Of a DNA stretch of 62,856 nucleotides, positions 759 through 29,484 are shown piece by piece; positions within the stretch are counted from its first letter, which is position 1; every line of letters starts with the position of its first letter. Position numbers and translations under genes: made by a program. The notes under the pieces are model-generated. The model ran no database searches and was not told the origin of the DNA. It saw only the letters and a list, made by a program, of their open reading frames with translations. Origin of the DNA: an uncultured Gammaproteobacteria bacterium (GTDB taxonomy: Bacteria > Patescibacteriota > Patescibacteriia > GCA-002772895); the NCBI GenBank assembly GCA_964522845.1, contig CAZFZQ010000001.1, forward strand, positions 6,559 to 69,414. Direction: 5' to 3'.

Positions 759-1427
759 ATGTCCTCAGTCAAAGAACATTTTAACGAAGTTGCGAAAAAT
801 TACGATTTTTGGAAAAAGAAAAATTGGTACTATTATAATAATTTAAAAAATCTTTATAGAAGTTTAATAACCGATGGCTCGTCGGTGCTGGAGGTTGGTT
901 GCGGCACGGGGGATGTGCTCTCCGCTCTTTTGCCGAAAAGAGGGGTGGGCATTGACTTGAGTGATGAAATGATAAAAATCGCGCAAGAAAAATATCAGAA
1001 GGAAAGAAACCTTAAATTTTTTTCCGCTACCGCAGAATTGTTGTCTGCGGAAGAAAAATTTGATTTTATCATTATGCCGGACGTGATTGAACATTTAGAA
1101 AATGTGATGTCAACGCTTGCGGCTTTGAAAAAATTTTCTAACGAAAAAACAAAAATTATAATTTCCATGATTAACCCATCGTGGGAGCCAATATTTATGA
1201 TTTTGGAAAAACTGCATTTGAAAATGCCGGAAGGGCCTCACGCAAGAATTTCCATAGATTCATTGAAAAAAAATATGGAAGAAGCCGGGTTTGTCCTTAA
1301 TTCCGAAGGATATCGCCTGATTATTCCCGCTTCCATTCCCGTTTTATCATTATTTAATAAATATTTTTATAAAATGCCGCTGTTCCGTCGTCTCGGCGCG
1401 GTATATTTCGGTGTTTTTTCATTATGA
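759..1427 (+). CDS. class I SAM-dependent methyltransferase
   Basis: Motif I VLEVGCGTGD, then IDLSDEM and PDVIEHL (Methyltransf_11/25-like). There is a 3-nt gap to the upstream ORF and an ATGA overlap with the next ORF. Confidence 0.85.
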   Translation: MSSVKEHFNEVAKNYDFWKKKNWYYYNNLKNLYRSLITDGSSVLEVGCGTGDVLSALLPKRGVGIDLSDEMIKIAQEKYQKERNLKFFSATAELLSAEEKFDFIIMPDVIEHLENVMSTLAALKKFSNEKTKIIISMINPSWEPIFMILEKLHLKMPEGPHARISIDSLKKNMEEAGFVLNSEGYRLIIPASIPVLSLFNKYFYKMPLFRRLGAVYFGVFSL

Positions 1428-3079
1428 TTAATAAAATAAAAATTTTTTTCGCGAGCCGTTTCGGCAAAGCACTCTTGGTTTTAGCGGTTTTCATTTTTTC
1501 TTTTGCGGTCAGGGCACTGCCTTTGTTGCAAAAAAAATATCCCATGGATAACGACGCGGTGCAGATGGTTTTGGCGCGCAATATCTATTTCGGTTTGGGC
1601 TATAAAATGGAGACGAAAGACGGCATAATCCTCGCGCCGTCGCTCGTGGCGGAAAGAGCCATGCCCGCTTCCAATCCTTATGTTGGCGTATCTTTGGCAT
1701 ACGCCTTGCTTTTTAAAATTTTTGGTTTTGCAAAAAATTTATTTTTGCCCATGATGACGACACTTTTGGCTCACGCGGCTGTAACCGCTCTTTTATTTCT
1801 TTTGGTGAAAAAAATGTTTAATTGGGGCATGGCTTTAGTTTTCGCGCTATTTGATATTTTTTTGCCCATCATCATAAAGGGATCGCTTGCTCCGGAACTT
1901 TATGAATTTGCTGCGCCAGCGTTTACCGTCGGCCTATTGTTTTATCTTTATACAAAAAGCGCCAAGCCGGCTCCTTGGCGGCTTATTTTTGCCGGCGTAT
2001 TTTTTACACTGGCGATTTTTGCGCGCAATGCCATGATGTTTTCTTACGGCGCTTTTGTGGTCTACGAATTTTATAAAAATCGGTCGTGGAAAAGAGCGCT
2101 TCTTTTTATTTTGCCCGGGATTTTAATTGCCGGCGGCGCGCTTTTGTATGCCATCCCGCGCAATTACGCTACTGGTTTTGCCGGCGGAATGATCGGAAAA
2201 ACAACTTTTCCGTCGCAATTTTATTCCCATATTTTTCCCGATGCTTATACATATAATTATGATCAGACAAATTATTTTGCTTCAGGCGGCGACAAAAGTT
2301 CTGTTTATAATGAGCCGTTTATGGCTTACGGGCGCAAGTATTCTCTTAAGGAATATTTGGCTATTTATGCCAAGCCGGCGACGGGCACAATTTTGGGATT
2401 TTTTCCGCTGATTGTCTGGGGCGGCCCATTGATTTTACTTTTATTTGTTTTTGGCGTCATATTTTTATATCGCGAAAAGCGGGAACTCTTTGAATTGCTG
2501 ATTATTTGGTTCATCGTTTGGTTTGCGGGATTATTTTTTGCCAGAACTGTTAATTGGACGCATTATTTGGAACTGGAATTTATTTTTGTTCTGACAATCA
2601 GCGTAGGATTTTATTGGCTGATGAAATTATTATTGAAGAGCGAGATGAGTAAAAAAATTAAATATGTGCTATTTGTTACGGCTGTTATTTTTACATTAGT
2701 TCATTTGATTGACGCCAACAAATGGATGTTGCATGAAAATTACCGAGGCGATATGCAAGGAGTAATGATCGATGTGGCCGCGCATTTGAACGGCCGGCAA
2801 TTGACGGACAAAGATGTTATTGCCACCGGTTTCGGCACCAGGTCGCAATATATTTTGAACTATTTGACGGGCTTGAATTATATCTATTTTAATCCTGAAA
2901 CTTTACAAAGACTGATTAAAGAAAATCGTCTAACTGACGCTTTTAAAATATATAACGTTAACAAAATTATCGGTTATACCTCTGAATTAAGCGATGCGGT
3001 TGCTAAGGCGGCAAAGGTTGAAAGTTTGGCCACGGATAATCATGTATGGGAAGAAACGCATATTATTGATTATAAATAA
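1424..3079 (+). CDS. polytopic membrane protein, candidate GT-C fold glycosyltransferase (ArnT/PMT-like)
   Basis: 551 aa with many hydrophobic helices over ~400 aa, then a soluble C-terminal domain. An acidic motif (MDNDA) follows TM1. It neighbours polyprenyl-phosphate-sugar synthase-like GT2 genes. Confidence 0.55.
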   Translation: MINKIKIFFASRFGKALLVLAVFIFSFAVRALPLLQKKYPMDNDAVQMVLARNIYFGLGYKMETKDGIILAPSLVAERAMPASNPYVGVSLAYALLFKIFGFAKNLFLPMMTTLLAHAAVTALLFLLVKKMFNWGMALVFALFDIFLPIIIKGSLAPELYEFAAPAFTVGLLFYLYTKSAKPAPWRLIFAGVFFTLAIFARNAMMFSYGAFVVYEFYKNRSWKRALLFILPGILIAGGALLYAIPRNYATGFAGGMIGKTTFPSQFYSHIFPDAYTYNYDQTNYFASGGDKSSVYNEPFMAYGRKYSLKEYLAIYAKPATGTILGFFPLIVWGGPLILLLFVFGVIFLYREKRELFELLIIWFIVWFAGLFFARTVNWTHYLELEFIFVLTISVGFYWLMKLLLKSEMSKKIKYVLFVTAVIFTLVHLIDANKWMLHENYRGDMQGVMIDVAAHLNGRQLTDKDVIATGFGTRSQYILNYLTGLNYIYFNPETLQRLIKENRLTDAFKIYNVNKIIGYTSELSDAVAKAAKVESLATDNHVWEETHIIDYK

Positions 3080-3111
3080 AATGGCTTAATTTAGATATTT
3101 TTATAGGTATT

Positions 3112-3528
3112 TTGAATGGTTATGTTGGTTACGCAGGAGAAGGGGTGTTCGTTAATTTGTTGCCCATTTCATTTGATATTTGGTATAAAGTTAAGGTGGA
3201 ATGGCGTATTTCTGACCATAGAGAAAGATATACGATAAATGACGGTACGCCGAGTGATTGGTTCGTATCGGGCGGAATACAAAATTGGAATAATATTGAT
3301 ACGTTAAGATTAAGAGCGCCAAATGTCGGCAACGTTTCCATGTTTTGGGATACTCTGTCAAGCCCCGTCACTTCATCATATTTGAGTTCAAGTATAGCTA
3401 ATGTTTTTTCTTTTACCGGCTATGTTCCGGGCACGTACAATCTGCAAGCTACGGCCTGCGATCCTTTCAATCTTTGTTCTTCTCTAACAGCTCCGATTCA
3501 CGTGTTTGGCAGCCCCTGCCAGCCGTGA
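3112..3528 (+). CDS. hypothetical protein (138 aa, TTG start, no signal peptide)
   Basis: Supported only by the open frame. The sequence is rich in W/N/S/T, like a beta-sandwich fragment. It could be a remnant of a larger surface protein. Confidence 0.3.
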   Translation: MNGYVGYAGEGVFVNLLPISFDIWYKVKVEWRISDHRERYTINDGTPSDWFVSGGIQNWNNIDTLRLRAPNVGNVSMFWDTLSSPVTSSYLSSSIANVFSFTGYVPGTYNLQATACDPFNLCSSLTAPIHVFGSPCQP

Positions 3529-3546
3529 TGAGCTAAATTCAACCAA

Positions 3547-3578
3547 AATACCTGCTTACTTTGCAGGTATTTTTATTT
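3547..3578 (+). terminator. rho-independent terminator
   Basis: 9-bp stem AATACCTGC / GCAGGTATT with a 7-nt loop, followed by a T-run. Confidence 0.6.
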
Positions 3579-3605
3579 GACTTTATGCTTAAAATTACCT
3601 ACAAT
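3577..3605 (+). promoter_or_regulatory. sigma70-like promoter for asnB
   Basis: TTGACT (3577-3582), a 17-nt spacer, TACAAT (3600-3605), 26 nt upstream of the ATG. Confidence 0.55.
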
Positions 3606-3631
3606 AAATACTAAATAAATAAGTTTATTTT

Positions 3632-5506
3632 ATGTGCGGGATTGCGGGTTTTGTAGGAAAGGGGGACAAGGATGTTTTAAAAAAAATGTCCCAAACGCTA
3701 TATCACCGCGGGCCGGATGATGAGGGTTTTTATTTTGAAAATGGCGTCGGTTTGGGATTTCGGCGGCTCTCAATTATTGATTTAAATACCGGCAGCCAGC
3801 CGATTTTTAATGAAGACAAAAGTATCGCCGTCATTTTTAATGGCGAGATTTATAATTTTAAAGAATTGCGCGAGGGGCTTTTGGCGCGGCATAATTTTTA
3901 TACTAAAACCGACACGGAAGTTATCGTCCACCTTTACGAGGAACTGGGCGAAAAATGTTTTGAAAAATTGAACGGGATGTTCGCCATTGCCATTTGGGAT
4001 AAAAAAAATAAAAAACTGGTTTTGGCGCGCGATCGGATGGGAAAAAAGCCGCTTTATTATTTTTGGGACGAAAAAAATTTTATTTTTGGTTCCGAATTAA
4101 AAGCCATAAAAGCGCACCCGGCATTTGTGGCGGAGCTGGACTTGGCATCGCTTAACAAATATTTTTTGTATGAATACGTGCCCGCGCCGGGCTCCATTTT
4201 TAAAAACACGAAAAAACTTTTACCGGGAAATTATTTGGTATTAAAAGATGGGCGGATAAACACAGAATCTTTTTGGGATACCACTTTTCACAATCATAAA
4301 ATAAATTCGGAAAAAGAAATTTTGGCGCGAATGGATAATTTGATTAATGATGCAGTGAAGATTCGTTTGGTTTCTGATGTACCGCTGGGAGTTTTTCTTT
4401 CAGGCGGACTGGATTCAAGCACCGTGGCTTATTACGCGCAAAAAAATTCCAATCAAAAGATAAACACTTTTTCCATCGGCTTTGATGATCCGTCGTTTGA
4501 TGAAAGCGCGTACGCAAGAAGGGCGGCGAAATTTTTAGGCACTAATCATCATGAGGATGTTTTGACTTCGCGTCAAACGCAAGAATTGGTGCCGCGGATT
4601 TTTGATTTTTTGGATGAACCGCTGGCTGATGCGTCAATTATCCCAACTTATTTTTTATCAAAATTCGCGCGGCAAAATGTAACCGTGGTATTGGGCGGCG
4701 ATGGCGGCGACGAGCTGTTCATGGGCTATCCGACTTTTTTGGCGCATCAATTCTCCGGTATTTACGAAAAGCTGCCGGAGTTTTTACGGAAAAATGTTTT
4801 GGAAGCGCTGGTCGCGTGTTTGCCTGTCAATTTGAATAATATGAGTTTTGATTTTAAAGCGAAGCGGTTTATTAAAGGATTGGGAGTCCGTCCAGAGTAT
4901 CGCAACCAAATTTGGCTTGGTGCTTTTGGCCGCGAAGAGCGCGCCAAACTTTTTCGGCCGGAAATTTGGAATGAACTAAAAAATAAAAACGAGTTTGAAG
5001 ATATTGACCGCGAAGTTGATGTGTTGGGGGCGGAAGCGGCAATCAACAAAATTATTAAATTGTATCAGAAGCATTATTTGGCGGATGAGGTGCTGGTTAA
5101 GGTTGACCGGGCATCAATGGCCGCTTCGCTTGAAGTGCGCGCCCCATTTTTAGATTATCGCCTGGTTGATTTTATGAATTCCGTTTCTTTTGATCAAAAA
5201 ATGAAAAATTTTCAGACAAAATATCTGCTTAAAAAATTAATGGATGGCAAATTGCCGCGGGATATCATTTATCGTCCGAAAAAGGGTTTTGGCGTGCCTT
5301 TGGCCAAGTGGTTTAAAAAAGAATTAAAGCCGTTATTATTAGATTTGTTAAGCCAAGAAAGGATTGACAAGGAAGGATTATTCAACTATCCTTATGTTGA
5401 GAAGTTATTGAATGATCATTTTGAAGGAAAGAAGGATAACAGAAAATTAATTTGGGCATTAGCGGTTTTTGAAATGTGGAGAGAGAAGTGGTTAAAAAAT
5501 ATATAA
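3632..5506 (+). CDS. asnB: asparagine synthase (glutamine-hydrolysing) family amidotransferase
   Basis: N-terminal MCGIAGF (Ntn Cys2 glutaminase), PP-loop SGGLDSS, 624 aa. Confidence 0.9.
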   Translation: MCGIAGFVGKGDKDVLKKMSQTLYHRGPDDEGFYFENGVGLGFRRLSIIDLNTGSQPIFNEDKSIAVIFNGEIYNFKELREGLLARHNFYTKTDTEVIVHLYEELGEKCFEKLNGMFAIAIWDKKNKKLVLARDRMGKKPLYYFWDEKNFIFGSELKAIKAHPAFVAELDLASLNKYFLYEYVPAPGSIFKNTKKLLPGNYLVLKDGRINTESFWDTTFHNHKINSEKEILARMDNLINDAVKIRLVSDVPLGVFLSGGLDSSTVAYYAQKNSNQKINTFSIGFDDPSFDESAYARRAAKFLGTNHHEDVLTSRQTQELVPRIFDFLDEPLADASIIPTYFLSKFARQNVTVVLGGDGGDELFMGYPTFLAHQFSGIYEKLPEFLRKNVLEALVACLPVNLNNMSFDFKAKRFIKGLGVRPEYRNQIWLGAFGREERAKLFRPEIWNELKNKNEFEDIDREVDVLGAEAAINKIIKLYQKHYLADEVLVKVDRASMAASLEVRAPFLDYRLVDFMNSVSFDQKMKNFQTKYLLKKLMDGKLPRDIIYRPKKGFGVPLAKWFKKELKPLLLDLLSQERIDKEGLFNYPYVEKLLNDHFEGKKDNRKLIWALAVFEMWREKWLKNI

Positions 5507-5523
5507 TATGTGATGGAAATTTT

Positions 5524-7428
5524 ATGCTGGCAAAAATAAAAAAAATTATATTTAACAGATATTTTTTGATGAGCGCCGTAGTTTTGGTTGCCATTATTTC
5601 CGCATGGTATTTTACGCGCACCCATTCTTTGTTTGGGACGATTTCCAACGATGACCAGTTTTACTATGATGATATAGCGATGAATATTTTAGATGGCCGG
5701 GGTATTTTTGCCACTTGGGATTTATGGATTTATGCATGCATGAGGGTGCCATTTTACCCCCTTTTACTGTCTTTGATATATTTATTTTTTGGCCACAGTT
5801 TTTTGGCCGCGGAGATATTTCAGTTTATATTGGGTATTTTTACTTGTTTGTTTGTATATTTAATAGTCGAAAGGATATTCAACAAAATCATCGCTTTTTT
5901 TACGGCTATTATTGTTGGTATTTATCCGATATACCTTGCATTTAATTTGCAGCTGATGAGAGAATCATCCTTTATTTTTTTATTTGTTGTTTTTTCCTAT
6001 TTAATTTTAAAGACATTAGATAATCCCGTCTGGAAAAATTTTATTTTAAGCGGATTATTGTTCGGCTTAATGGTGTTAAATAGGCCGACTATATTTTTTG
6101 CCTTGCCGTTAATTTTGTCATGGCTTCTTATCATTTTTCGTAAAAATCGCAAATTATTTTTTCCTTTATCCATAGGGCTGGGACTTATTCCCGCTTTAAT
6201 GATCGGCGGCTGGTTAATACGCGGACAAATCGTAGCTGGCGCACCTAGTATGGAATATCCTGGAACTTTGAATATGTGGGCATACGCAACGAATCACTCC
6301 AAAGAGTATGAGCGAGACAATATGACTGTTAATCCGGAAATTTTATGGGACAAACCTTACGCCAGTGAGGGAGAAAGAGTAAAGAGGCTTACTAACGAAT
6401 CTCTCCAGGGTATTTTTAGAAATCCCGTTGGTCTAATAAAAAAAGGAACGCATAATTTATTTACGATGCATTGTTTTAGCGGTACGTGCTCTACGCTATG
6501 GGAGCCATTTTTAATGATTCTTGGCTTTATCGGGTTATCTTTTGGTCTGATATTATTGCCAATAACAACGATTTATTTTTTGATTTGTATTTTGGCGGTC
6601 GTTGTTCCAAGCGCCATTTTTGGCGGTAGCGGCACTTCACGATTTCGCAATCCTTTGGACTGGATATATATAATGTATGCCCTTTTCTTTATTTATGTTT
6701 TGGGAAAATCTTTAATTAACAGAAGAAGTTTAATGAATTTAATCAGTAATAAAGAATTTGGACAAATTAAACAAAATGAAAATAATATTCTAAAACATGC
6801 AAGGCGATTAATTATCCTGATTGTCGTTGCAACTATCGTTTTTGGATTGTTAAAAATTGGCTATAATAATGTATTTTGCAAAAATACCTATCTATCAGGC
6901 ATTTCTAATCAGGAGGCGGAAGAAATTTTGGCTAAGAATAAATTTCTAATTAACCGTAGCCTTAAAAATTGGGAATCGTTCGAAAATATTAAAAATTATA
7001 TTTTTGGGCACCAGATGAACTTGGATGATTATCGCGGCACGCTTATTAATTGGACGGGTATTATCCGTAACCCCGCATATATTGGCGCTAATCAAAAAAT
7101 GAACAATATGATAGTATTAAGAGCGGATAATATTCATTCGTTTGAATCAACCTTTTTTAATTTTATCATTACTTCAAACACATGTTCTTTGGGCGGGGGA
7201 AATTTTTATGCTATATTCCCCGGCCGTTTGCCTGAAAATTTTAAAGACAAATATGTGGCGGTTTTGGGACAATTAAAACAAAATAACACGCCAGCGGATC
7301 GTTTTGGCATACATGTCATTGCGATTGTACTGATAGACAAACAGGGACAGCTGGATTTTAATCAGTTGGTATTTGCAGAGAATATAACTCAGCTTCAGAA
7401 ACAATCGGATTTTTATAAAAATAAATAA
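5524..7428 (+). CDS. polytopic membrane protein, candidate GT-C fold glycosyltransferase with a large C-terminal domain
   Basis: I prefer the ATG at 5524 because the ORF-track start at 5476 overlaps asnB. There are ~12 hydrophobic helices, an acidic loop NDDQFYYDD after TM1, and a soluble ~200-aa tail. Confidence 0.55.
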   Translation: MLAKIKKIIFNRYFLMSAVVLVAIISAWYFTRTHSLFGTISNDDQFYYDDIAMNILDGRGIFATWDLWIYACMRVPFYPLLLSLIYLFFGHSFLAAEIFQFILGIFTCLFVYLIVERIFNKIIAFFTAIIVGIYPIYLAFNLQLMRESSFIFLFVVFSYLILKTLDNPVWKNFILSGLLFGLMVLNRPTIFFALPLILSWLLIIFRKNRKLFFPLSIGLGLIPALMIGGWLIRGQIVAGAPSMEYPGTLNMWAYATNHSKEYERDNMTVNPEILWDKPYASEGERVKRLTNESLQGIFRNPVGLIKKGTHNLFTMHCFSGTCSTLWEPFLMILGFIGLSFGLILLPITTIYFLICILAVVVPSAIFGGSGTSRFRNPLDWIYIMYALFFIYVLGKSLINRRSLMNLISNKEFGQIKQNENNILKHARRLIILIVVATIVFGLLKIGYNNVFCKNTYLSGISNQEAEEILAKNKFLINRSLKNWESFENIKNYIFGHQMNLDDYRGTLINWTGIIRNPAYIGANQKMNNMIVLRADNIHSFESTFFNFIITSNTCSLGGGNFYAIFPGRLPENFKDKYVAVLGQLKQNNTPADRFGIHVIAIVLIDKQGQLDFNQLVFAENITQLQKQSDFYKNK

Positions 7429-8387: not shown

Positions 8388-8465
8388 AATAAACAGTTTT
8401 AATGATATCAAAAGATATCGGCGCGGTTTTAGCGCTTTGGTAAACGGCTGTTTTTATCATAAATT

Positions 8466-9329: not shown

Positions 9330-9336
9330 TTTTTTT

Positions 9337-11237: not shown

Positions 11238-11242
11238 GCTTT

Positions 11243-14368: not shown

Positions 14369-14404
14369 TATTCATGCTTGCATAAAATCAAAATTTGGAT
14401 TAAT

Positions 14405-23092: not shown

Positions 23093-24478
23093 GTGGTACA
23101 ATTAAACCCGCTATATATTATGTCATTAGCCGGAAAAATCGGAAAAAATACGGGTATAAAATACGCCCAATCGATCGCTAATATTATTTTTGGCGCGCTG
23201 GCAGGTTATGTTACCTTACGCTATCTGACTGTGCCGCAATTTGGCGCGTTCGCTCTGGCCTTATCGTTCGCCTGGGTGGTTTTACCGTGGATCGATTTGG
23301 GTATCAGCCAGGTTGTTGTCGCGGATGCGGCCGGATATTTCGGGCGGAAAGAAATGGATAAAGTGAAAAGGCTGTTCCGCGGCTTTACATTTTTAAAATT
23401 ATTTTTTGGCGCCATTGTTGCCATAGCCGGTTTGATTTTTTCTTTTTTCTTGAAATATGACGCGCAATTTATTTTGCTTCTGCGGTTGTCCGCCATTTTT
23501 GTTTTTATTCAATGTGTGAGAAGCATCGTTATAACTGTTTTTGAAAGTTTCTCGCGATTTTTTTATTCGGCAGTTTTGAACATCTTGGAATCGTTTTTCA
23601 AACTTGCCGCCATTTTTGTTTTTATTTTTTTGTTGAAAATGCAAGCCGAGGGCGTAATTTTGTCTTATATTTTTTCCACGTTTTTGGCGATCGTATTTTC
23701 TCTGCCGTTTTTTATAAAAGTTATTTTACCGTTTAGAAAAATTATCACATCGCCCGAACCGATATTCAAAAAACTTATTTTTGAACATGGAAAATTTCAA
23801 GCCTTTTCCCAGCCGATAAAGGCTTTGTCGGACAATTTCCAACTGTGGTATATCGGCTGGTCTTTAAATACTTCGGCGGTGGGGTTATATCGTTTAGCTT
23901 CTCAGCTTTTTAATTATATTTCGCTTTTGCCCGCCGTTTCGGAATCAGTTTTAATGCCGATTTTTTCCGAAGAAATGGGATCACGGCCGGGAAAAACGGG
24001 TTTTATAGTTCAGCGAGTCAGTAAATATTTGTTCTGGCTGTCTGTACCGCTCACTCTCGGAGGTTTTTTTGCCGTGCCGCCGGTTTTGTATTTTCTTTTT
24101 GGAACAAAATATAATGCGGCCATGCCCGTTTTTTATATGATGCTCATTTCTTTGCCGGCTATCGCCCTGGGGACCAGTTTGCGTCCGGCATTTTTTGCGT
24201 TTAAAGATCAAAAAACAATTTTAAAGATTCATCTCTGGACGATTTTTGTTTCCTATCCAATTGCCATACTCTGTTCTCTGCGATGGGGACTTCTTGGTTT
24301 TAGTGTTGTCGCGCCTGTTTCAGCCGCCAGTTCGCTTTTTTTCAGAATTTATTATTTGCGGAAAAGGATCAGCGGCCCGATTTTTACAGTAAAAAGTTTT
24401 TTTTCTTTTGACAGGTATGATAGCTTGCTGGCAAGAAGAATTTTTTTTGCCATAAAAAATAAGAAACTAATATCCTAA
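23093..24478 (+). CDS. Wzx-like (MOP superfamily) polysaccharide flippase candidate
   Basis: ~450 aa with 12-14 hydrophobic helices, in a glycan-locus context. GTG start; an alternative ATG lies at 23120. Confidence 0.6.
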   Translation: MVQLNPLYIMSLAGKIGKNTGIKYAQSIANIIFGALAGYVTLRYLTVPQFGAFALALSFAWVVLPWIDLGISQVVVADAAGYFGRKEMDKVKRLFRGFTFLKLFFGAIVAIAGLIFSFFLKYDAQFILLLRLSAIFVFIQCVRSIVITVFESFSRFFYSAVLNILESFFKLAAIFVFIFLLKMQAEGVILSYIFSTFLAIVFSLPFFIKVILPFRKIITSPEPIFKKLIFEHGKFQAFSQPIKALSDNFQLWYIGWSLNTSAVGLYRLASQLFNYISLLPAVSESVLMPIFSEEMGSRPGKTGFIVQRVSKYLFWLSVPLTLGGFFAVPPVLYFLFGTKYNAAMPVFYMMLISLPAIALGTSLRPAFFAFKDQKTILKIHLWTIFVSYPIAILCSLRWGLLGFSVVAPVSAASSLFFRIYYLRKRISGPIFTVKSFFSFDRYDSLLARRIFFAIKNKKLIS

Positions 24479-24479
24479 T

Positions 24480-25085
24480 ATGCAGACAACGTCTGAAGTA
24501 ACACAATATTTATCAAAATATATAAGCGGGAGAACGCTTGATTTTGGCGCAGGCGGTGCCAAATATCGCGATATAATCAAGAGAAATGCAAACGAGTATA
24601 TCGCTTTTGATATGATGCCGGGAAAAAATATTGATGTCGTGGGCGACGTAATGAGCGCGCCATTTGCTGCGGCTGAATTTGACACCGTTATTTCCACGCA
24701 AGTGCTGGAGCATGTGGAAAAGCCGTGGATAATGATCGGCGAAATAAGCCGTATCTTGAAATCCGGCGGGAAGTGCATTTTGACCGCGCCATTTTTACAG
24801 CCGTATCACAATGACCCTGGAGATTATTTTCGTTATACGAAAGATGGCATGGCGTCTCTTTTTAAAAATAGCGGATTTAAAATCGTGGAATGCGGCAGTT
24901 ATGGGAAAATTTTTACCGTTTTGTCCGAATTTATTAAGTTTATTTATTTTGATCCTTATAAAAAACAGAAAAAAGGCGCGCCGCGCATTTTGGTTTTTTT
25001 GCTAAAAATGGCGAGATTTCTTGACAAGTATGCGAAAAATGATAAGATTTATTCCAATGTATATATTGTGGCCGAGAAATTGTAA
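24480..25085 (+). CDS. class I SAM methyltransferase (Methyltransf_11-like)
   Basis: TLDFGAGG, STQVLEHV, LKSGG. Confidence 0.75.
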   Translation: MQTTSEVTQYLSKYISGRTLDFGAGGAKYRDIIKRNANEYIAFDMMPGKNIDVVGDVMSAPFAAAEFDTVISTQVLEHVEKPWIMIGEISRILKSGGKCILTAPFLQPYHNDPGDYFRYTKDGMASLFKNSGFKIVECGSYGKIFTVLSEFIKFIYFDPYKKQKKGAPRILVFLLKMARFLDKYAKNDKIYSNVYIVAEKL

Positions 25086-25088
25086 ATT

Positions 25089-26312
25089 ATGAAAATCGCC
25101 ATTCTACAAGATGAAATGCCGTGGGATTCCGTTGGCGGGGCCGGCGTGGTTGCGCTTGATTTAGCTAAAGCATTGTGCCATCGCGGGCACGATGTTTTTG
25201 TTATTTGCGCCACGCACAGAGATGTGCCTGAATATGAAGAAAGAGGCGGCTTGAGAATATACAATATTAAAAACAGGCCATTTGGTTTTTTAAGATATTA
25301 TTTTTGCCTATATAATCCGCAGATCGTGCCAAAAATCCGTAAGATTTTTGAAAAAGAAAAACCGGATGTTGTTCATTGCCATAATTTGCATTCCGCCTTG
25401 TCGTACCATTCTTTGAAAATCGCCAAAAAAATCGCCAAAAAAATTTTTATTACCACGCATGACGCAATGATGTTTAATTACGGAAAATTGGCCAGTGCAA
25501 GATATTTAAAAAATTTTGATTGTCGGGCGTCTTGGATTGATAACTTTAAAACAGCGGGGAAGCAATATAATCCGCTGCGCAATATTTTAATCAAACATTA
25601 TTTAAAATATGCGGACAAAATTTTTGCAGTCAGCCACGCGCTCGCGGACGCTTTGAATCAAAACGGAATTAAAAATATAGCCGTTGTTTATAATGGCGTG
25701 GACATAGGCTCCTTTCGTGCCGAAGAAGATGATGTTAAAAATTTTAAAAAACATCATAACCTGGAGGGGAAAAAAATTATTTTTTTTGCGGCCAGAATCA
25801 GCCGGGAAAAAGGGCCGGAAACATTATTGCGGGCATTGCCTCATATCTTAAGACGGATTCCTAATGCTGTTTTGCTTATCGCCGGCGACGGCAACGAATC
25901 GTATGTAAAAATTTTGAAAAATATTGCCGCCTCCGCCGGCTTGGAAAATGCCGTTTTGTTTTTAGGCAGAGTTCCTTATGAAGAAATAGACAAATTTTAT
26001 TTTATTGCCGATGTCGCGGTGACGCCGTCAATTTATTTGGATCCGTTTAATTTGACGAATATTGCGGCTATGGCCGCAAAAAAACCGGTCGTGGGCACCT
26101 GCTACGGCGGCACTCCGGAAATTGTTTTAGATGGAAAAACCGGTTTCATAATCAATCCTTTTAATATAGAAATCATGGCTGAAAAAATTTCCAATTTGTT
26201 GGAAGATGAACAATTGTCCGAAGCGTTCGGTGCGGAAGGAAATAAAAGAGTAAAAGAAAAATTTTCTTTGGAAAAGCAGGTTGATGAAACCTTGCGATAT
26301 TATAATGAATAG
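25089..26312 (+). CDS. GT4 (group 1) glycosyltransferase
   Basis: MKIAILQDE...GGAGVVALDLAKAL at the N-terminus. C-terminal region NIAAMAAKKPVVGT..GGTPEIVLDGKTGFII. Confidence 0.85.
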   Translation: MKIAILQDEMPWDSVGGAGVVALDLAKALCHRGHDVFVICATHRDVPEYEERGGLRIYNIKNRPFGFLRYYFCLYNPQIVPKIRKIFEKEKPDVVHCHNLHSALSYHSLKIAKKIAKKIFITTHDAMMFNYGKLASARYLKNFDCRASWIDNFKTAGKQYNPLRNILIKHYLKYADKIFAVSHALADALNQNGIKNIAVVYNGVDIGSFRAEEDDVKNFKKHHNLEGKKIIFFAARISREKGPETLLRALPHILRRIPNAVLLIAGDGNESYVKILKNIAASAGLENAVLFLGRVPYEEIDKFYFIADVAVTPSIYLDPFNLTNIAAMAAKKPVVGTCYGGTPEIVLDGKTGFIINPFNIEIMAEKISNLLEDEQLSEAFGAEGNKRVKEKFSLEKQVDETLRYYNE

Positions 26313-26315
26313 TTT

Positions 26316-27770
26316 ATGTCTGATGTAATTTTATTTTTTCCGAAAGTCAAAGAAGATGGTTCATCGGCTTTTTTGCCGGCCAATCTTTTAATGGTGGCCG
26401 CGCCGCTCGTGGCAAAAGGGGTGTCTGTTAAAATTATCGATCAGCGCACGGATGAAAACTGGCGCGAGATATTATTGGAAGAATTGAAACGAGAGCCGCT
26501 TGTTGCCGGCTTCACGTCTCTTACGGGCAAGCAGTTGCTCTACGCGCTTGAGGCGAGCAAAATCGTCAGAGAAAACAGCCGGGCGAAAATTGTCTGGGGC
26601 GGCATTCACGCTTCTCTTTTACCGGAGCAGACGCTCGAGAACGGCTGCATTGATATAGTGGTCGTGGGAGAGGGCGAGGAAACATTCAGCGAGCTTTACG
26701 GCCGGCTGAAAGACGGGCGTCCGTACGAAGATGTTTTGGGGTTGGCATATAGGAAAGACGGAAAAATTTTTGTAAATCCCCCAAGGAGTTTTATCAATTT
26801 GGATTCATTGCCGGAATTGCCGTATCATTTGATTAAAATGGAAAAGTATATCAGTTCAAAATCTTTCGCTTCCGGCCGGCCGGCAAAAAATATTTTTTTC
26901 TTTACCAGCCGCGGTTGTCCGCATCATTGCGGATTTTGTTACAACGAGGGCTTCAACAAGAGGCGGTGGCGGGGGATGAGCGCGGAACGGACTTTCAAAG
27001 AAATTAAGCGGCTGTATGATGAGTATGGCGTTACGGCTTTCGATATAGAAGATGATGAATTTTTTACTGATTTGGCGCGCGTAAAAAAGTTTTGCGGATT
27101 GGTTATCCAAAACAATTTGAAGATTGAAATTTTTACTTCCTGCCGCCTGAATTATTTAGACAGAATGGATGATGATTATTTGGAATTGATAAAAAAAGCC
27201 GGTTTCTTGATACTATCTTTTGGCGTGGAAACCGGATCGGAGAGAATGCTAAAATTTGTGGATAAGGATATCACAATAGAACAGGTTCTGCGCGGTGTTG
27301 CCCGCCTGCAAAAAGCCGGCATCGGTTCAAAATATTATTTTATGGTCGGTTTTCCCACGGAGACGATAGAAGATATGTATGCGACAACGGATTTAATGCA
27401 AAAAATGAAACAAATTTCACCGGGCATCCGCATTCCGCAATGGCGCGTTTATGCGCCGTATGCCGGTACATTGCTTTACATCTTAAGCCAGGAACACGGT
27501 TTTGTGCCGCCGGTTTCCATTGCGGAGTGGTCAAAGTTTGAATACTCCGTTATCAATACGCCGTGGATTACTCCAAAAATGCGGCGGATTGTGGAAAATG
27601 TTATTTTTCTGTTAAAATATTTGGAGGTAGACAAGAGTGATGGACCAGCATGGCTGACCAAGCTTTACAGTAAAACAATCAATTGGCGATGGAAGCGGCA
27701 TTGGCTCGGTTTTGTGCCGGAGAAAAAAATAATTGAAAAAATTTTATCATTAAAATACGGAGGAAGATAA
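26316..27770 (+). CDS. B12-binding-domain radical SAM protein
   Basis: The N-terminus looks like a flavodoxin/B12-type domain. Cluster CPHHCGFC. IEDDEF and FGVETGS motifs. Confidence 0.85.
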   Translation: MSDVILFFPKVKEDGSSAFLPANLLMVAAPLVAKGVSVKIIDQRTDENWREILLEELKREPLVAGFTSLTGKQLLYALEASKIVRENSRAKIVWGGIHASLLPEQTLENGCIDIVVVGEGEETFSELYGRLKDGRPYEDVLGLAYRKDGKIFVNPPRSFINLDSLPELPYHLIKMEKYISSKSFASGRPAKNIFFFTSRGCPHHCGFCYNEGFNKRRWRGMSAERTFKEIKRLYDEYGVTAFDIEDDEFFTDLARVKKFCGLVIQNNLKIEIFTSCRLNYLDRMDDDYLELIKKAGFLILSFGVETGSERMLKFVDKDITIEQVLRGVARLQKAGIGSKYYFMVGFPTETIEDMYATTDLMQKMKQISPGIRIPQWRVYAPYAGTLLYILSQEHGFVPPVSIAEWSKFEYSVINTPWITPKMRRIVENVIFLLKYLEVDKSDGPAWLTKLYSKTINWRWKRHWLGFVPEKKIIEKILSLKYGGR

Positions 27771-27771
27771 T

Positions 27772-28575
27772 ATGAAAGATTACAAAGTCGGCATAATGGG
27801 GATAGGTATGGTGGGGGGAGCTACGGCGCGTTATTTTGAATCAAAAGGCATAAAACCGTTTCTTTATGATCCGCCGCGGGGCTTGGATTCCAAAGAAGAA
27901 ATCAACAAGGCGGAAATGGTTTTTATTTGCGTGCCTACGCCTTATGACGATGAGAAGGGCGGTTTTGACTTATCTTTTGTCAGGCAGGCAATTTCTATTT
28001 TAAACGGAGAAAAAATTGTTGTTTTGAAATCAACGATTTTGCCCGGCTCAACCGATGATTTGCAGGCCGAATTTCCTCAGCATAAGATTTTATTTAATCC
28101 GGAATTTTTGACCGAAGTCACGGCGGATCAAGATATGAAATTTCCCGACCGCCAGATTGTGGGCTATACGGAAAAAAGTTTTAATGTAGCCAAGGATTTG
28201 ATGTTGCTTTTGCCGCTCGCGCCTTTTGAAAGAATCGTTCCGGCTAAGGTTGCGGAAATTGTAAAATATTTTAATAATACATGGTTCGCGACCAAAGTTA
28301 TTTTTGCCAATCAGGTTTATGATGTTTGTGGAAAATTAAACGCGGATTACGATTTAATCGCCGAATGCGCGTCAGCGGACAAACGCGTTGGGCCATCGCA
28401 TTTGCAAGTTTTACATAAAGGGTATCGGGGTTACGGCGGCAAGTGTTTGCCCAAGGATACGCGCGCTTTCATTCAGCTGGGCGAACGTTTGGGAGTGGAT
28501 TTGAAATTATTAAAAATGGTTGAGGAAATTAATAATGATTTGATTGGCAAACAAGGAATGAACGGAAAAATTTAA
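27772..28575 (+). CDS. UDP-glucose/GDP-mannose dehydrogenase-family protein, short form (no C-terminal UDP-binding domain)
   Basis: Rossmann motif GIMGIGMVGG, NPEFLTE, and catalytic-Cys motif GGKCLPKD. It is only 267 aa. Confidence 0.7.
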   Translation: MKDYKVGIMGIGMVGGATARYFESKGIKPFLYDPPRGLDSKEEINKAEMVFICVPTPYDDEKGGFDLSFVRQAISILNGEKIVVLKSTILPGSTDDLQAEFPQHKILFNPEFLTEVTADQDMKFPDRQIVGYTEKSFNVAKDLMLLLPLAPFERIVPAKVAEIVKYFNNTWFATKVIFANQVYDVCGKLNADYDLIAECASADKRVGPSHLQVLHKGYRGYGGKCLPKDTRAFIQLGERLGVDLKLLKMVEEINNDLIGKQGMNGKI

Positions 28576-28578
28576 ATT

Positions 28579-29484
28579 ATGAAATATCTCGTAACCGGCG
28601 GGGCGGGGTTTATTGGGACGAATTTAGTAAAAGAATTGCTGGCGCAAGGCCACGAGGTTGTTGTGATTGATAATTATGCCGGCGGAAGAAAACCGGAGCG
28701 GATGCAAAACGGCGCCACATATTTTGAGGGCGATATCCGCAAGCCCGAGGATTTGAATAATGTTTGTCGAAACGGTTTTGATGGAATATTTCATTTTGCC
28801 GCTTTGCCCAGAGTGACTTTTTCCGTGGAGCATCCGGCGGAAACGCACGCGGCCAATGCTACTGGTACATTAAATGTTTTAATCGCCGCGCGGGATCATA
28901 AAATAAAACGCGTGATTTTTTCTTCATCGTCGTCGGTTTATGGCAATCAAGAAATTTATCCTTTGAAAGAAGATTTTATTCCGTTGCCCATCAGTCCCTA
29001 TGCTTTGCATAAATTTATCGGCGAACATTATTGCCGGCTGTTTAATAGTCTCTATGGGCTGGAAACCGTCTGCCTCCGGTATTTTAATGTCTATGGCCCG
29101 TATTTTGATCCCGAAGGGGCGTACGCCTTGGTTATTGGCAAGTTTTTAAAACAAAAAAAAGAAGGCACGCCCATGACTGTTTGCGGCGATGGAGAATATT
29201 ATCGCGACTACACGCACGTTTCCGATATCGTGCGCGCCAACATCGCGGCCATGCAGTCGGATAAAGTTGGACGAGGCGATGTATTTAATATCGGAAATAA
29301 TAATCCGCATTCGGTAAACGAATTGGTTAAAATGATCGGCGGAGAATTTGTTTTTGTGCCGCCCCGCCCGGGCGATGTCCGCTTTACTCAAGCTGACAAT
29401 TCTAAAGCCAAAGAAATTTTGGTCTGGGAACCGAAAGTTCGGTTGGAAGAGGGGATAGAAGAATTGAAAAAAATGTATTTATAA
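28579..29484 (+). CDS. NAD-dependent nucleotide-sugar epimerase/dehydratase (extended SDR)
   Basis: VTGGAGFIGTNL, SSSSVYG, YALHK (YxxxK). Confidence 0.85.
   Translation: MKYLVTGGAGFIGTNLVKELLAQGHEVVVIDNYAGGRKPERMQNGATYFEGDIRKPEDLNNVCRNGFDGIFHFAALPRVTFSVEHPAETHAANATGTLNVLIAARDHKIKRVIFSSSSSVYGNQEIYPLKEDFIPLPISPYALHKFIGEHYCRLFNSLYGLETVCLRYFNVYGPYFDPEGAYALVIGKFLKQKKEGTPMTVCGDGEYYRDYTHVSDIVRANIAAMQSDKVGRGDVFNIGNNNPHSVNELVKMIGGEFVFVPPRPGDVRFTQADNSKAKEILVWEPKVRLEEGIEELKKMYL

Follow-up and report, generated by a model that had tools for sequence, protein, structure and literature searches.

In an ordinary lipid-linked route to surface glycans, a polyprenyl-phosphate hexose-1-phosphate transferase starts the chain, cytoplasmic glycosyltransferases extend it and a Wzx flippase exports the product. 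In Arn/Gtr-like decoration routes, GT2 enzymes load single sugars onto polyprenyl phosphate and GT-C enzymes transfer them to an acceptor on the outer face of the membrane. Radical SAM (rSAM) enzymes that tailor sugars are also described, including AprD4, BlsE, which acts on a glucuronate, BtrN and the sugar C-methylase MoeK5; HpnJ co-clusters with MoeK5 and with Fom3 (PMC9204698). We analyzed a 62,856-nt stretch of DNA (the window), most probably from an ultra-small member of the CPR/Patescibacteria, although this assignment rests on nearest homologues only. Its first ~39 kb form a surface-sugar gene cluster in which both routes are probably combined with an unusually large set of rSAM and methyltransferase (MT) genes. 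No paper that we found describes the conserved gene cassette within it, and no protein of the locus reaches the curated cut-off of an NCBIfam equivalog model of a characterized pathway. Only two generic models are passed, those for asparagine synthase and for the EPS polyprenyl glycosylphosphotransferase subfamily.

Gene content of the locus

The original prediction described a single-strand glycan locus of about 26 genes dense in rSAM, MT and polytopic GT-C-like genes, and this observation is confirmed. We found 26 ORFs on the + strand between 75 and 29484, covering 99% of that span, with 7 rSAM genes (one of them a 5'-truncated remnant), 6 class-I MTs, a Wzx flippase, glycosyltransferases and an AsnB amidotransferase (table below). 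Spacers in nt are 3, -4, 32, 103, -31, 14, 78, -50, 26, 5, 9, 9, -47, 2, 6, 3, 24, -4, 10, 30, 1, 3, 3, 1 and 3. The three long overlaps disappear with later in-frame starts, at 9337 and 15540, which the original prediction had used, and at 5524. The terminator and promoter that it proposed as the only clear break lie in the 103-nt gap but are consensus matches only, and a second gap of 78 nt at 8388-8465 had not been mentioned.

Three points of the original description needed correction. The first rSAM gene encodes only the C-terminal half of a B12-class enzyme, the cluster-binding and B12 halves being missing. The "repeated modules" are not recent duplications, since paralogues are 23-33% identical and only the MTs at 10545 and 21487 reach 52%; the locus is better described as a mosaic of anciently diverged cassettes than as tandem repeats. 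Finally, the locus does not end at 29484 but continues to about 39163 (~39.2 kb), adding an initiating phosphotransferase on the minus strand. GC content is lower than in the housekeeping flank (0.33-0.40 against 0.43-0.47), as is usual for variable glycan loci.

We further investigated whether the four polytopic proteins have a GT-C fold. All four are assigned to GT-C, two (5476 and 12671) because they pass the Pfam PMT_2 threshold and two (1424 and 19526), which have no Pfam hit, by predicted fold, as the top Foldseek hits of their AlphaFold models are exclusively GT-C enzymes. The model of mem551 has only moderate confidence, but weak PMT_2 and DUF2298 hits in orthologues of these two proteins agree with the assignment.

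Features of the locus, in window coordinates (TM, transmembrane segments; L001, L005, L006 and L041 are related loci retrieved for comparison)
Coordinates	Strand	Feature	Supporting data
39..755	+	5'-truncated B12-class rSAM gene (ORF 75-755); C-terminal half only, no CxxxCxxC motif	Pfam Radical_SAM matches profile positions 61-166 only; homology starts at nt 39, 82% identical to residues 236-470 of the intact 472-aa orthologue in L005; stop codons upstream; an independent ENA contig starts at window nt 29
759..1427	+	MT1, soluble class-I SAM methyltransferase	Methyltransf_23/25/11; 64% orthologue in the same rSAM-MT-GT-C string in L005 and L006
1424..3079	+	mem551, predicted GT-C-fold glycosyltransferase of a rare family	9 predicted TM; AF2 pLDDT 66, pTM 0.64; top 23 Foldseek PDB hits all GT-C (PglB, STT3, AglB, AftA, ArnT); 3 of 6 orthologues weakly hit PMT_2; only 5 homologues found
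3112..3528	+	orf138, no assigned function	No Pfam or NCBIfam hit, no TM, no homologue in the retrieved loci
3545..3605	+	Terminator-like hairpin (3545-3573), then promoter-like site (3577-3605)	11-bp stem followed by a T-run; TTGACT-17-TACAAT matches 10 of 12
3632..5506	+	AsnB-type glutamine-dependent amidotransferase	Asn_synthase plus GATase_7; TIGR01536 504 bits, above cut-off; XrtA/PEP-CTERM amidotransferase TIGR03108 608 bits, below cut-off of 817; orthologues at 47-57% in the conserved cassette
5476..7428	+	GT-C glycosyltransferase, PMT_2 family, 650 aa	PMT_2 58 bits against a cut-off of 26; 10 TM
7443..8387	+	GT2a, ArnC/GtrB-type polyprenyl-phosphate sugar synthase	Full-length match to ArnC 9hwj (E 1.7e-56) and GtrB sll0501 (E 7e-44); two C-terminal TM; orthologues at 58-61% across CPR loci
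8466..9329	+	GT2b, second polyprenyl-phosphate sugar synthase (AglJ/ArnC-like)	ArnC E 8e-21; AglJ model 121 bits, below cut-off; two C-terminal TM
9280..10518	+	rSAM412, class-B-like rSAM enzyme; start probably 9337	Radical_SAM 87 bits; CPFKCRFC at residue 190; top NCBIfam hits HpnJ and PhpK, far below cut-offs; no PF02310 hit
10545..11237	+	MT2, membrane-anchored class-I MT with C-terminal TM hairpin	Methyltransf_11; two C-terminal TM; 52% identical to MT4
11243..12661	+	B12rSAM472, cobalamin-domain rSAM enzyme, most conserved gene of the cassette	B12-binding plus Radical_SAM; invariant CX4CX2C at C213/C218/C221; more than 100 clusters at 56% identity or above, all named ones Patescibacteria or DPANN; nearest solved structure AprD4
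12671..14368	+	GT-C glycosyltransferase, PMT/PMT_2 family, 565 aa	PMT_2 39 bits and PMT 30 bits, both above cut-offs; D36-E37 after TM1 invariant in 13 orthologues
14378..15577	+	GT4a, cytoplasmic retaining glycosyltransferase	Glycos_transf_1 plus Glyco_transf_4
15531..16706	+	SPASM391, rSAM/SPASM enzyme; start probably 15540	Radical_SAM plus SPASM; CNLQCSYC motif
16709..17416	+	MT3, class-I MT with one C-terminal hydrophobic segment	Domain and TM searches
17423..18496	+	SPASM357, rSAM/SPASM enzyme	Domain search; nearest solved structure BlsE, cytosylglucuronate decarboxylase (E 1.3e-6)
18500..19501	+	SPASM333, rSAM/SPASM enzyme	Domain search; nearest solved structures BtrN (E 1.2e-10, auxiliary-cluster domain) and GDGT/macrocyclic archaeol synthase
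19526..21490	+	mem654, predicted GT-C-fold glycosyltransferase of a largely CPR-restricted family distantly related to DUF2298	13 TM; AF2 pLDDT 83.5, pTM 0.86; top 15 Foldseek hits all GT-C; 172 representatives at E<=1e-30; 33 loci in species genomes: 24 labelled as or consistent with CPR (two contigs come from a bin labelled Gammaproteobacteria), 1 Woesearchaeota, 8 distant Chloroflexota; 4 of 24 members hit DUF2298
21487..22365	+	MT4, membrane-anchored MT with N-terminal Cys-rich extension	Methyltransf_11, weak Prok-RING_1 hit; two C-terminal TM; orthologues at 41-51% immediately upstream of the B12-rSAM in other loci
22376..23062	+	MT5, soluble class-I MT	Domain search; orthologues at 46-75% in the cassette
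23093..24478	+	Wzx-type (MOP) flippase	Polysacc_synt, Polysacc_synt_3 and MurJ
24480..25085	+	MT6, class-I MT of the MT2/MT4 family lacking the TM hairpin	Domain and TM searches, paralogue comparison
25089..26312	+	GT4b glycosyltransferase	Domain search
26316..27770	+	B12rSAM484, cobalamin-domain rSAM enzyme	B12-binding plus Radical_SAM; CPHHCGFC motif; top NCBIfam hits BchE and ApyD, below cut-offs
27772..28575	+	Short nucleotide-sugar dehydrogenase-like protein (267 aa), no C-terminal domain	UDPG_MGDP_dh N-terminal and central domains; GxGxxG motif; 56% identical to the second UGDH-like gene of the Magasanikbacteria locus L001, whose full length is not seen
28579..29484	+	NAD-dependent sugar epimerase (GalE/TviC-like)	Epimerase 215 bits; GalE 185 bits and TviC 173 bits, both below cut-offs
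29513..30895	-	Initiating polyprenyl-phosphate hexose-1-phosphate transferase, convergent with the main operon	Bac_transf 207 bits; TIGR03025 EPS_sugtrans 344 bits against a cut-off of 296
30926..32686	+	Membrane-anchored TPR protein (30926-31597) and second epimerase/dehydratase (31691-32686)	Domain and TM searches
32736..33756	+	GT2c, PpgS-like polyprenyl-phosphate sugar synthase, plus small DUF2304 membrane protein	PpgS model 194 bits, below cut-off of 370; DUF2304 84 bits; same pair in Woesearchaeota L041 at 47% and 37% identity
33880..35397	+	orf505, possible eighth, divergent rSAM protein	GCSKGCPFCG motif; weak PoyD-type rSAM hit (26 bits, E 3e-6); no Pfam hit
35409..39163	+	GT2d (35409-36503), secreted orf322 (36707-37675) and GT4c (38018-39163); downstream end of the glycan region, Lon follows at 39743	Domain and TM searches

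Conservation of the cassette

We then asked whether the gene order is conserved in relatives. The rSAM/MT/GT-C theme is conserved, its uncharacterized core of a B12-rSAM, MTs and outward-facing membrane sugar transferases recurring in hundreds of CPR and DPANN metagenome contigs. In particular, the string ArnC-like GT2 - AsnB - MT - membrane-anchored MT - B12-rSAM - GT-C - GT4 recurs in many CPR/Patescibacteria lineages and in DPANN archaea, and strings with 41-69% identical orthologues occur in Magasanikbacteria and other CPR loci. In 27 metagenome loci anchored only on the B12-rSAM, a GT-C or polytopic gene is immediately downstream in 16 and within 4 genes in 22, while the membrane MT lies within 3 genes in 19. 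The cassette is also present in a Woesearchaeota chromosome-scale contig and in Omnitrophica, and a minimal four-gene version, GT2-MT-PMT_2-B12rSAM, stands alone on an Elusimicrobia-related contig. However, gene order is mosaic between genomes, so co-location may reflect a shared pathway type rather than one fixed pathway, and the window lacks the ArnA/ArnD-like formyltransferase and deacetylase seen in related loci.

A proposed lipid-carrier glycan pathway

The original prediction read the locus as encoding a heavily methylated or radical-modified surface glycan or glycolipid, completed outside the membrane by GT-C-like enzymes and matching no characterized pathway. Our analysis supports this interpretation: the GT-C fold, conservation in relatives and the absence of a match to a known cluster had been set beforehand as points on which it could fail, and none refuted it. 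Assembly outside the membrane gains further support from the three polyprenyl-phosphate-sugar synthases GT2a, GT2b and GT2c, and the TM hairpins of MT2 and MT4 fit action at the membrane face.

The substrates of the rSAM enzymes are more likely to be sugars than peptides, as their nearest solved relatives (AprD4, BlsE and BtrN) are sugar-tailoring enzymes, and HpnJ is the top NCBIfam hit of three of the four B12-class rSAMs. These similarities to AprD4, BlsE and BtrN are weak (E 1e-6 to 3e-13) and partly confined to generic core or auxiliary-cluster regions, and all NCBIfam equivalog scores for the rSAMs are far below their cut-offs.

We therefore favor, with reasonable rather than firm confidence, a cell-envelope glycan super-locus with two arms. 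In the first, an ordinary lipid-linked route, the phosphotransferase would start a chain that GT4 and GT2 enzymes extend, the nucleotide-sugar dehydrogenase and epimerases would supply, probably, uronic acids, and the Wzx flippase would export the product; no Wzy polymerase, Wzz, WaaL or LCP ligase was detected by domain searches of the locus, so that a polymer and its anchoring are not implied. In the second, an Arn/Gtr-like decoration route, three GT2 enzymes would load single sugars onto polyprenyl phosphate and four GT-C enzymes would transfer them to the acceptor on the outer face. Overlaid on both would be the tailoring set: AsnB (carboxylate to amide), six class-I MTs, three intact B12-class rSAMs, probably C-methylases of unactivated sugar carbons, and three SPASM rSAMs, probably acting in sugar oxidation, epimerization or decarboxylation. 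Since SAM, ATP, glutamine and reducing power exist only in the cytoplasm, all tailoring would in this view have to precede flipping, on nucleotide- or polyprenyl-phosphate-linked sugars. While gene content, folds (for two GT-C proteins from predicted models), synteny and phyletic spread come directly from the analysis, the substrates, the order of steps, the chemistry, the product and the acceptor (polysaccharide, S-layer or pilin protein, or wall polymer) are inferred.

Within this framework, we read the conserved cassette as one unit that would make a polyprenyl-phosphate-linked, amidated and O-/C-methylated sugar and hand it to its dedicated GT-C transferase. Altogether, its recurrence in CPR and DPANN points to a heavily methylated, still unknown surface glycan.

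Gene content and extent of the locus

We first examined the organization of the locus. A listing of open reading frames (ORFs) shows 26 ORFs on the plus strand from 75 to 29484, covering 99% of the interval, with spacers that are mostly 1-32 nt or short overlaps. Only two intergenic gaps are longer, and the first holds a terminator-like hairpin and a promoter-like site matching the consensus at 10 of 12 positions. Three apparent overlaps of 31-50 nt vanish when later in-frame starts are taken, two of which had been used in the original prediction. Pfam confirms the genes called in that prediction, with seven radical SAM (rSAM) genes, six class-I methyltransferases (MTs), a Wzx-type flippase, two GT4 and two GT2 genes, an AsnB-type amidotransferase, two PMT_2 membrane proteins, a nucleotide-sugar dehydrogenase-like gene and an epimerase. 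The predicted observation thus held, with three corrections.

Features of the glycan locus and its flank, with coordinates (start only where a single position is listed)
Position	Strand	Feature	Details
75-755	+	5'-truncated rSAM	Homology to the intact orthologue stops at nt 39; N-terminal half and CxxxCxxC motif absent
759	+	MT1, class-I methyltransferase	
1424	+	mem551, polytopic membrane protein	9 predicted TM segments; predicted GT-C fold
3529-3631		103-nt gap	
3545-3573		Terminator-like hairpin	
3577-3605		Promoter-like site	10/12
3632	+	AsnB-type amidotransferase	
5476	+	PMT2_650, PMT_2 membrane protein	Later in-frame start 5524; PMT_2 58 bits; 10 predicted TM segments
8388-8465		78-nt gap	
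9280	+	rSAM412	Later in-frame start 9337; PF04055 core only, class-B best hits; canonical CxxxCxxC
10545	+	MT2, class-I methyltransferase	C-terminal TM hairpin
11243-12661	+	B12rSAM472	PF02310 plus PF04055; CX4CX2C
12671	+	PMT2_565, PMT_2 membrane protein	PMT_2 39 bits; 9 predicted TM segments
15531	+	SPASM391, rSAM	Later in-frame start 15540; PF04055 plus PF13186; CxxxCxxC
16709	+	MT3, class-I methyltransferase	
17423	+	SPASM357, rSAM	PF04055 plus PF13186; CxxxCxxC
18500	+	SPASM333, rSAM	PF04055 plus PF13186; CxxxCxxC
19526	+	mem654, polytopic membrane protein	13 predicted TM segments; predicted GT-C fold
21487-22365	+	MT4, class-I methyltransferase	N-terminal Cys-rich (CxxC...CxxC) extension with a weak Prok-RING_1 hit; C-terminal TM hairpin
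22376	+	MT5, class-I methyltransferase	
23093	+	Wzx-type flippase	Polysacc_synt
24480	+	MT6, class-I methyltransferase	
26316	+	B12rSAM484	PF02310 plus PF04055; canonical CxxxCxxC
27772-28575	+	UDP-glucose/GDP-mannose dehydrogenase-like protein	267 aa; GxGxxG kept; no C-terminal nucleotide-sugar domain
29513-30895	-	Initiating phosphotransferase, convergent	Bac_transf and TIGR03025 above their cut-offs
32736-33756		GT2c, PpgS-like, with its DUF2304 partner	PpgS model 194 bits, cut-off 370
33880-35397		orf505, possibly a very divergent eighth rSAM	505 aa; no Pfam hit; GCSKGCPFCG motif; weak PoyD-type rSAM epimerase hit, 26 bits
36707-37675		orf322, secreted protein	322 aa; Cys- and aromatic-rich; signal-anchor; no family hit
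45231-46847		538-aa ORF	Highly charged; no family hit
47757-48098		DUF5674 protein	127 bits; among small unannotated ORFs between PheS and PheT

First, the initial rSAM gene is incomplete: it is 82% identical to residues 236-470 of an intact 472-aa orthologue (locus L005), and the sequence upstream of the homology is unrelated and contains stop codons. An independent ENA contig (L007) begins at window nt 29. This is either a strain-variable junction that breaks assemblies or a genuine gene remnant. Second, the "repeating modules" of the original prediction are not recent tandem duplications, since an all-vs-all BLASTP gives 23-33% identity between paralogues and only MT2 against MT4 reaches 52%. 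Third, the glycan region does not end at 29484 but extends to 39163, adding the initiating phosphotransferase, a TPR protein and a second epimerase/dehydratase, GT2c and its DUF2304 partner, orf505, a GT2, the secreted orf322, which lies between glycosyltransferase genes and could be a surface or carbohydrate-binding protein, and a GT4. Genes for Lon, an M50 (RseP-type) protease, PheS/PheT, DnaE and ThrRS follow. GC content is 0.33-0.40 in the locus against 0.43-0.47 in this housekeeping flank. Clusters of the Lon, PheS, ThrRS and DUF5674 proteins contained no named members.

The short dehydrogenase-like gene was considered as a pseudogene, but it is 56% identical to the second UGDH-like gene of a Magasanikbacteria locus (L001), which lies beside a full-length UGDH and runs off the end of the fetched locus, and it rather looks like a conserved variant. 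orf138, a small ORF at 3112-3528, was considered as a remnant of the methyltransferase that occupies this position in L005, but BLASTP and TBLASTN showed no similarity. orf505, orf322, orf138 and the TPR protein have no homologues in the 120 fetched loci. No Rfam match, including cobalamin or SAM riboswitches, was found anywhere in the window, and a promoter/terminator scan of 20-39.8 kb performed no better than shuffled sequences and was uninformative.

Four predicted GT-C proteins and their putative donor synthases

We further investigated the four polytopic proteins, which have 9-13 TM segments each as predicted by hydropathy, within the 8-13 expected of GT-C enzymes. Sequence searches against the PDB gave no meaningful hits, and fold prediction was needed. 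PMT2_650 and PMT2_565 score above the PMT_2 gathering threshold. For mem654, an AlphaFold2 model built on 24 homologues reached pLDDT 83.5 and pTM 0.86, and its 15 best Foldseek PDB matches are all GT-C enzymes (STT3, DPY19, AglB, AftA, PglB and ArnT), after which scores fall abruptly to noise; 4 of 24 mem654 relatives hit DUF2298. For mem551, only 5 homologues were found and the model is weaker (pLDDT 66), yet its top 23 matches are again exclusively GT-C, followed by a sharp drop, and three of its six orthologues weakly hit PMT_2. TM-scores are modest for both (0.35-0.52). Acidic residues follow the first TM segment, as expected of the first extracytoplasmic loop of GT-C enzymes: D36-E37 is invariant in 13 PMT2_565 orthologues, E28 is conserved in at least 90% of 24 mem654 relatives, and D44 is invariant in 6 mem551 orthologues, a shallow alignment, while PMT2_650 had a single orthologue and is uninformative. 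The locus therefore encodes four GT-C enzymes, two assigned by sequence and two by predicted fold.

Their likely donor-makers are also present, although use of a polyprenyl-phosphate-linked donor by these GT-C proteins is inferred only indirectly from this co-location. GT2a is a full-length homologue of ArnC (E 2e-56) and GtrB (E 7e-44), GT2b is a weaker one, and both have two C-terminal TM segments. GT2c and its DUF2304 partner resemble the mycobacterial PpgS (Rv3631)/Rv3632 pair, in which a GT2 polyprenyl-phosphate-aminosugar synthase is paired with a small DUF2304 membrane protein and feeds a GT-C transferase, Rv3779. The window pair has this layout but scores below the PpgS cut-off, and the mycobacterial acceptor, arabinogalactan, is not expected here.

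These proteins raise the possibility of a protein glycosylation system like the archaeal Agl or bacterial Pgl/PMT pathways, in which the lipid-linked, methylated oligosaccharide and single sugars would be transferred by the GT-C enzymes onto S-layer, pilin or other surface proteins rather than polymerized into a polysaccharide. The locus has an initiating transferase and a Wzx flippase, but no Wzy_C/O-antigen ligase, Wzz or LCP hit was found among the ORFs scanned in 1-39 kb (a GT-C protein could substitute), and this absence gives the protein-glycosylation reading real weight. Two of the GT-C proteins belong to the PMT_2/PMT family of protein O-mannosyltransferases and keep the DE motif, the best structural matches of mem654 and mem551 are the oligosaccharyltransferases STT3, PglB and AglB, the best NCBIfam hit of GT2b is AglJ, the dehydrogenase hits AglM, and the cassette is shared with DPANN archaea. 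AglP methylates a dolichol-linked hexuronic acid in Haloferax N-glycosylation. Pilin O-glycosylation has been predicted in Saccharibacteria (PMC12206443). On the other hand, none of the four proteins has a WWDxG motif (searched as W[WYF]DxG) or an STT3 hit in Pfam, TM-scores to oligosaccharyltransferases are no better than those to ArnT or AftA, which act on lipid and glycan acceptors, the AglJ and AglM scores are far below the equivalog cut-offs, and no candidate acceptor protein is encoded in the locus. This reading, which differs from our main explanation only in the acceptor, is possible but less likely.

Recurrence of the tailoring cassette in other genomes

We then asked whether this gene content is conserved. 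Homologues of mem654 are almost all from CPR MAGs; the named ones include Magasanikbacteria (56% identity), Nealsonbacteria and Levybacteria, plus one Woesearchaeota. A scan of species-representative genomes found 33 loci, of which 24 are labeled as, or are consistent with, CPR (two of those contigs come from a bin labeled Gammaproteobacteria), one is Woesearchaeota and 8 are distant Chloroflexota, and an exhaustive profile search finds 172 representatives at E<=1e-30. The neighborhoods of the CPR-type loci are full of methyltransferases, B12-rSAMs, SPASM rSAMs, AsnB, GT2 and GT4, while the Chloroflexota loci have none. Orthologues of mem551 sit in a fixed string, B12-rSAM-MT-mem555-MT-AsnB.

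Orthology mapping shows a recurrent core of GT2a (58-61% identity), AsnB (47-57%), MT5 (46-50%), an MT2/MT4-type membrane MT (41-51%) and B12rSAM472 (59-69%), then PMT2_565 (43-56%) or mem654, often followed by GT4. B12rSAM472 has more than 100 clusters at 56% identity or above, and every named one is Patescibacteria or Nanoarchaeota, with Woesearchaeota, Omnitrophica and Elusimicrobia following at 46-48%. Instead of the canonical CX3CX2C rSAM motif, B12rSAM472 and all 18 aligned orthologues use CX4CX2C (C213, C218, C221; 'RGCPxGxCTFC'), invariant across these 19 sequences.

Contexts outside CPR keep the association. A 731-kb Woesearchaeota contig (L041, JAUSCS010000006.1, 2523-12369), with A-type ATP synthase genes adjacent, carries GT2-MT-AsnB-?-B12rSAM-PMT-GT4 and the GT2c/DUF2304 pair at 35-51% identity to the window; Nanoarchaeota-labeled B12-rSAM orthologues reach 58%. 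This suggests transfer between CPR bacteria and DPANN archaea. An Omnitrophica contig has a large similar locus with Wzx, and a groundwater metagenome contig whose B12-rSAM cluster is named Elusimicrobia (L043, 5122-9413) has a minimal stand-alone cassette, GT2-MT-PMT_2-B12rSAM, flanked by unrelated peptidase and thioesterase genes, which makes a convenient unit for heterologous expression.

To avoid selecting on a GT-C gene, we anchored a metagenome scan on the rSAM alone, which found more than 502 relatives (a lower bound). Among 27 close-orthologue loci with downstream sequence, a GT-C or polytopic gene is the immediate downstream neighbor in 16 and lies within four genes in 22, and the membrane MT lies within three genes in 19. 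These statistics largely refute the view that the clustering carries no functional meaning, with unrelated SAM enzymes accumulated in a hypervariable region, or that the contig is an assembly chimera. Gene order is indeed mosaic between genomes, GC content is low, and the first gene is truncated exactly where an independent assembly breaks; however, the same string recurs with 41-69% identical orthologues in many lineages and in two domains, genes are translationally coupled or 1-30 nt apart, and the independent ENA contig reproduces window positions 29-3868. We consider this view very unlikely.

Inferred pathway, candidate substrates and related systems

We next compared the tailoring enzymes with characterized families. 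No rSAM reaches any NCBIfam equivalog cut-off, the best scores being HpnJ 184 against 578, BchE 172 against 481, and the tungsten-cofactor maturase model 121 against 380. The nearest solved structures are sugar-tailoring enzymes: AprD4, OxsB and TokK for B12rSAM472, the glucuronate decarboxylase BlsE for SPASM357, and BtrN for SPASM333. The rSAM sugar-tailoring enzymes of aminoglycoside and nucleoside antibiotics (GenK/GenD1, AprD4, BtrN and BlsE) perform the kinds of chemistry proposed here (C-methylation, dehydration, dehydrogenation and decarboxylation of sugars), but similarity is low (E 1e-6 to 3e-13), they act on soluble secondary metabolites rather than envelope glycan precursors, and none is known to be linked to GT-C enzymes. 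Methyl transfer to an unactivated carbon by the class-B rSAMs is only inferred.

A lipid substrate is an alternative, in which the rSAMs and MTs would modify the polyprenyl carrier or scavenged membrane lipids to make a tailored glycolipid, by analogy with hopanoid (HpnJ/HpnR/HpnP) or archaeal tetraether (Gmm, Tes/GDGT-MAS) tailoring. HpnJ is the top NCBIfam hit for three B12-class rSAMs, SPASM333 also matches GDGT/macrocyclic archaeol synthase (E 1.8e-8) and the Tes model (44 bits), and some of the MTs are membrane-anchored. A review places HpnJ with the sugar C-methylase MoeK5 and with Fom3 in one sub-cluster of cobalamin rSAMs (PMC9204698), and a MoeK5-like B12-rSAM has been shown to be a GMGT lipid methylase, acting on archaeal lipids (PMC11214058), which keeps this alternative alive. 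The cassette is also shared between CPR and DPANN, two groups that depend on host lipids. However, all scores are far below the family cut-offs (Tes 44 against 450), the conserved partners are sugar enzymes (polyprenyl-phosphate-sugar GT2, AsnB, GT-C and GT4) with no lipid-synthesis genes among them, the other rSAMs match AprD4, BlsE and BtrN best, and AsnB needs a carboxylate, which uronic acids provide and polyprenols do not. A lipid substrate is therefore unlikely.

We also rejected the reading of the SPASM enzymes as peptide (RiPP) maturases making a modified, possibly glycosylated, peptide. SPASM domains are typical of peptide maturases, the NCBIfam lists include PapB, PqqE, SCIFF and sactipeptide maturases at weak scores, and orf505 weakly hits PoyD. 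Yet the dense packing leaves no room for precursor-peptide genes beside the SPASM genes, no peptidase, ABC exporter or RiPP recognition element was found, the best PDB matches are sugar enzymes, and the SPASM genes recur next to GT-C and GT2 genes in other CPR loci, making this very unlikely.

Our analysis establishes the gene content, the GT-C folds (two from models), the homology of the donor synthases, the synteny and the phyletic spread, while the pathway itself is inferred. From established biochemistry, SAM, ATP/glutamine and low-potential electrons are cytoplasmic, so that all methylation, amidation and radical chemistry must precede flipping, and GT-C enzymes use polyprenyl-phosphate-linked donors on the outer face. 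In this view, the cassette would work like an elaborated Arn/Gtr system: the GT2 loads a sugar onto polyprenyl phosphate, probably a uronic acid given the dehydrogenase, the epimerase and AsnB; AsnB amidates it; the soluble and membrane MTs and the B12-rSAM O- and C-methylate it; and after flipping the adjacent GT-C attaches it to the acceptor. The acceptor may be the Wzx-exported oligosaccharide started by the phosphotransferase and built by the GT4 and GT2 enzymes, or a surface protein. The original interpretation, a heavily methylated or otherwise radical-modified surface glycan or glycolipid assembled outside the membrane, is supported. We hold our main explanation with moderate confidence, its firmest part being the glycan-locus reading, whereas the specific model of tailoring on the lipid carrier remains tentative.

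Among the closest known systems are the Arn (ArnC/ArnT; L-Ara4N transfer to lipid A) and Gtr-type O-antigen glucosylation (GtrB/GtrC) systems, in which a GT2 with a C-terminal TM hairpin makes a polyprenyl-phosphate monosaccharide and a PMT_2-family GT-C enzyme transfers the sugar on the outer face; in the Arn pathway, deformylation by ArnD takes place on the lipid-linked sugar. GT2a is a full-length ArnC homologue but scores 224 bits against the ArnC equivalog cut-off of 529, the PMT_2 proteins are related to ArnT at family level only, and ArnA (decarboxylase/formyltransferase), ArnB aminotransferase and ArnD deformylase equivalents are absent from the window, with Formyl_trans_N and Polysacc_deac_1 genes occurring only in related CPR loci. 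The cassette adds AsnB, two or three MTs and a B12-rSAM, none of which occurs in Arn or Gtr, and CPR bacteria are generally regarded as lacking an outer membrane and lipid A.

The archaeal Agl pathway (AglJ/AglD, AglM, AglP, AglR, AglS, AglB) similarly has dolichol-phosphate sugar GT2 enzymes, a UDP-glucose dehydrogenase, a SAM methyltransferase acting on a lipid-linked hexuronic acid, a Wzx-like flippase and GT-C enzymes working outside the membrane, but no STT3/AglB family member was found here, all Agl equivalog scores are below their cut-offs, and the Agl pathways contain no rSAM enzymes.

The closest chemical precedent is moenomycin unit-F tailoring, in which the UDP-uronic-acid epimerase MoeE5, the AsnB-like amidotransferase MoeF5 and the B12-rSAM C-methylase MoeK5 are reported to act on a lipid-phosphate-linked uronic acid to give a C-methyl uronamide (Ostash et al., 2009). 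The window has the same enzyme classes side by side. It contains no MoeO5-type prenyl-phosphoglycerate synthase, and it is a primary envelope locus with Wzx and GT-C enzymes, not an antibiotic cluster.

The system is thus not a member of the Arn, Agl, Pgl or moenomycin pathways, whose defining components are missing or score below their cut-offs. It would work like a combination of a Wzx pathway and Arn/Gtr-type extracytoplasmic decoration, with rSAM tailoring otherwise known only from antibiotic sugar pathways. Literature searches for such loci in CPR/Patescibacteria/DPANN or in O-antigen contexts found no description of this cassette or locus type. It is a real, widespread, uncharacterized glycan-tailoring cassette of CPR and DPANN organisms, of which the window holds an unusually rich example.

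More tentatively, CPR bacteria and DPANN archaea may share a horizontally exchanged, previously undescribed pathway acting at the cytoplasmic membrane face, after which dedicated GT-C transferases, including two families without Pfam models, would attach the sugar to the cell surface. This would be the first case of B12-rSAM chemistry in primary envelope-glycan assembly on a lipid carrier, and a shared surface signature of ultra-small episymbionts, which must scavenge cobalamin to make it.

The work defines a concrete, testable unit, GT2-AsnB-MT-membrane MT-B12-rSAM-GT-C, together with two predicted GT-C families without Pfam models and a well-conserved B12-rSAM family with hundreds of metagenomic relatives and a non-canonical motif, all good targets for enzymology and for glycan analysis in the few cultivated Patescibacteria. 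CPR bacteria and DPANN archaea are ultra-small organisms with genomes of roughly 1 Mb, mostly living attached to host cells, and their surface chemistry, essentially unknown, is what touches the host. If this genome is of that size, a locus of about 39 kb is a few percent of it, spent on one glycan system with 7-8 rSAM enzymes, three of which are predicted to need cobalamin. The core cassette is conserved across many CPR classes and crosses into archaea, which argues that its product is important for this lifestyle.
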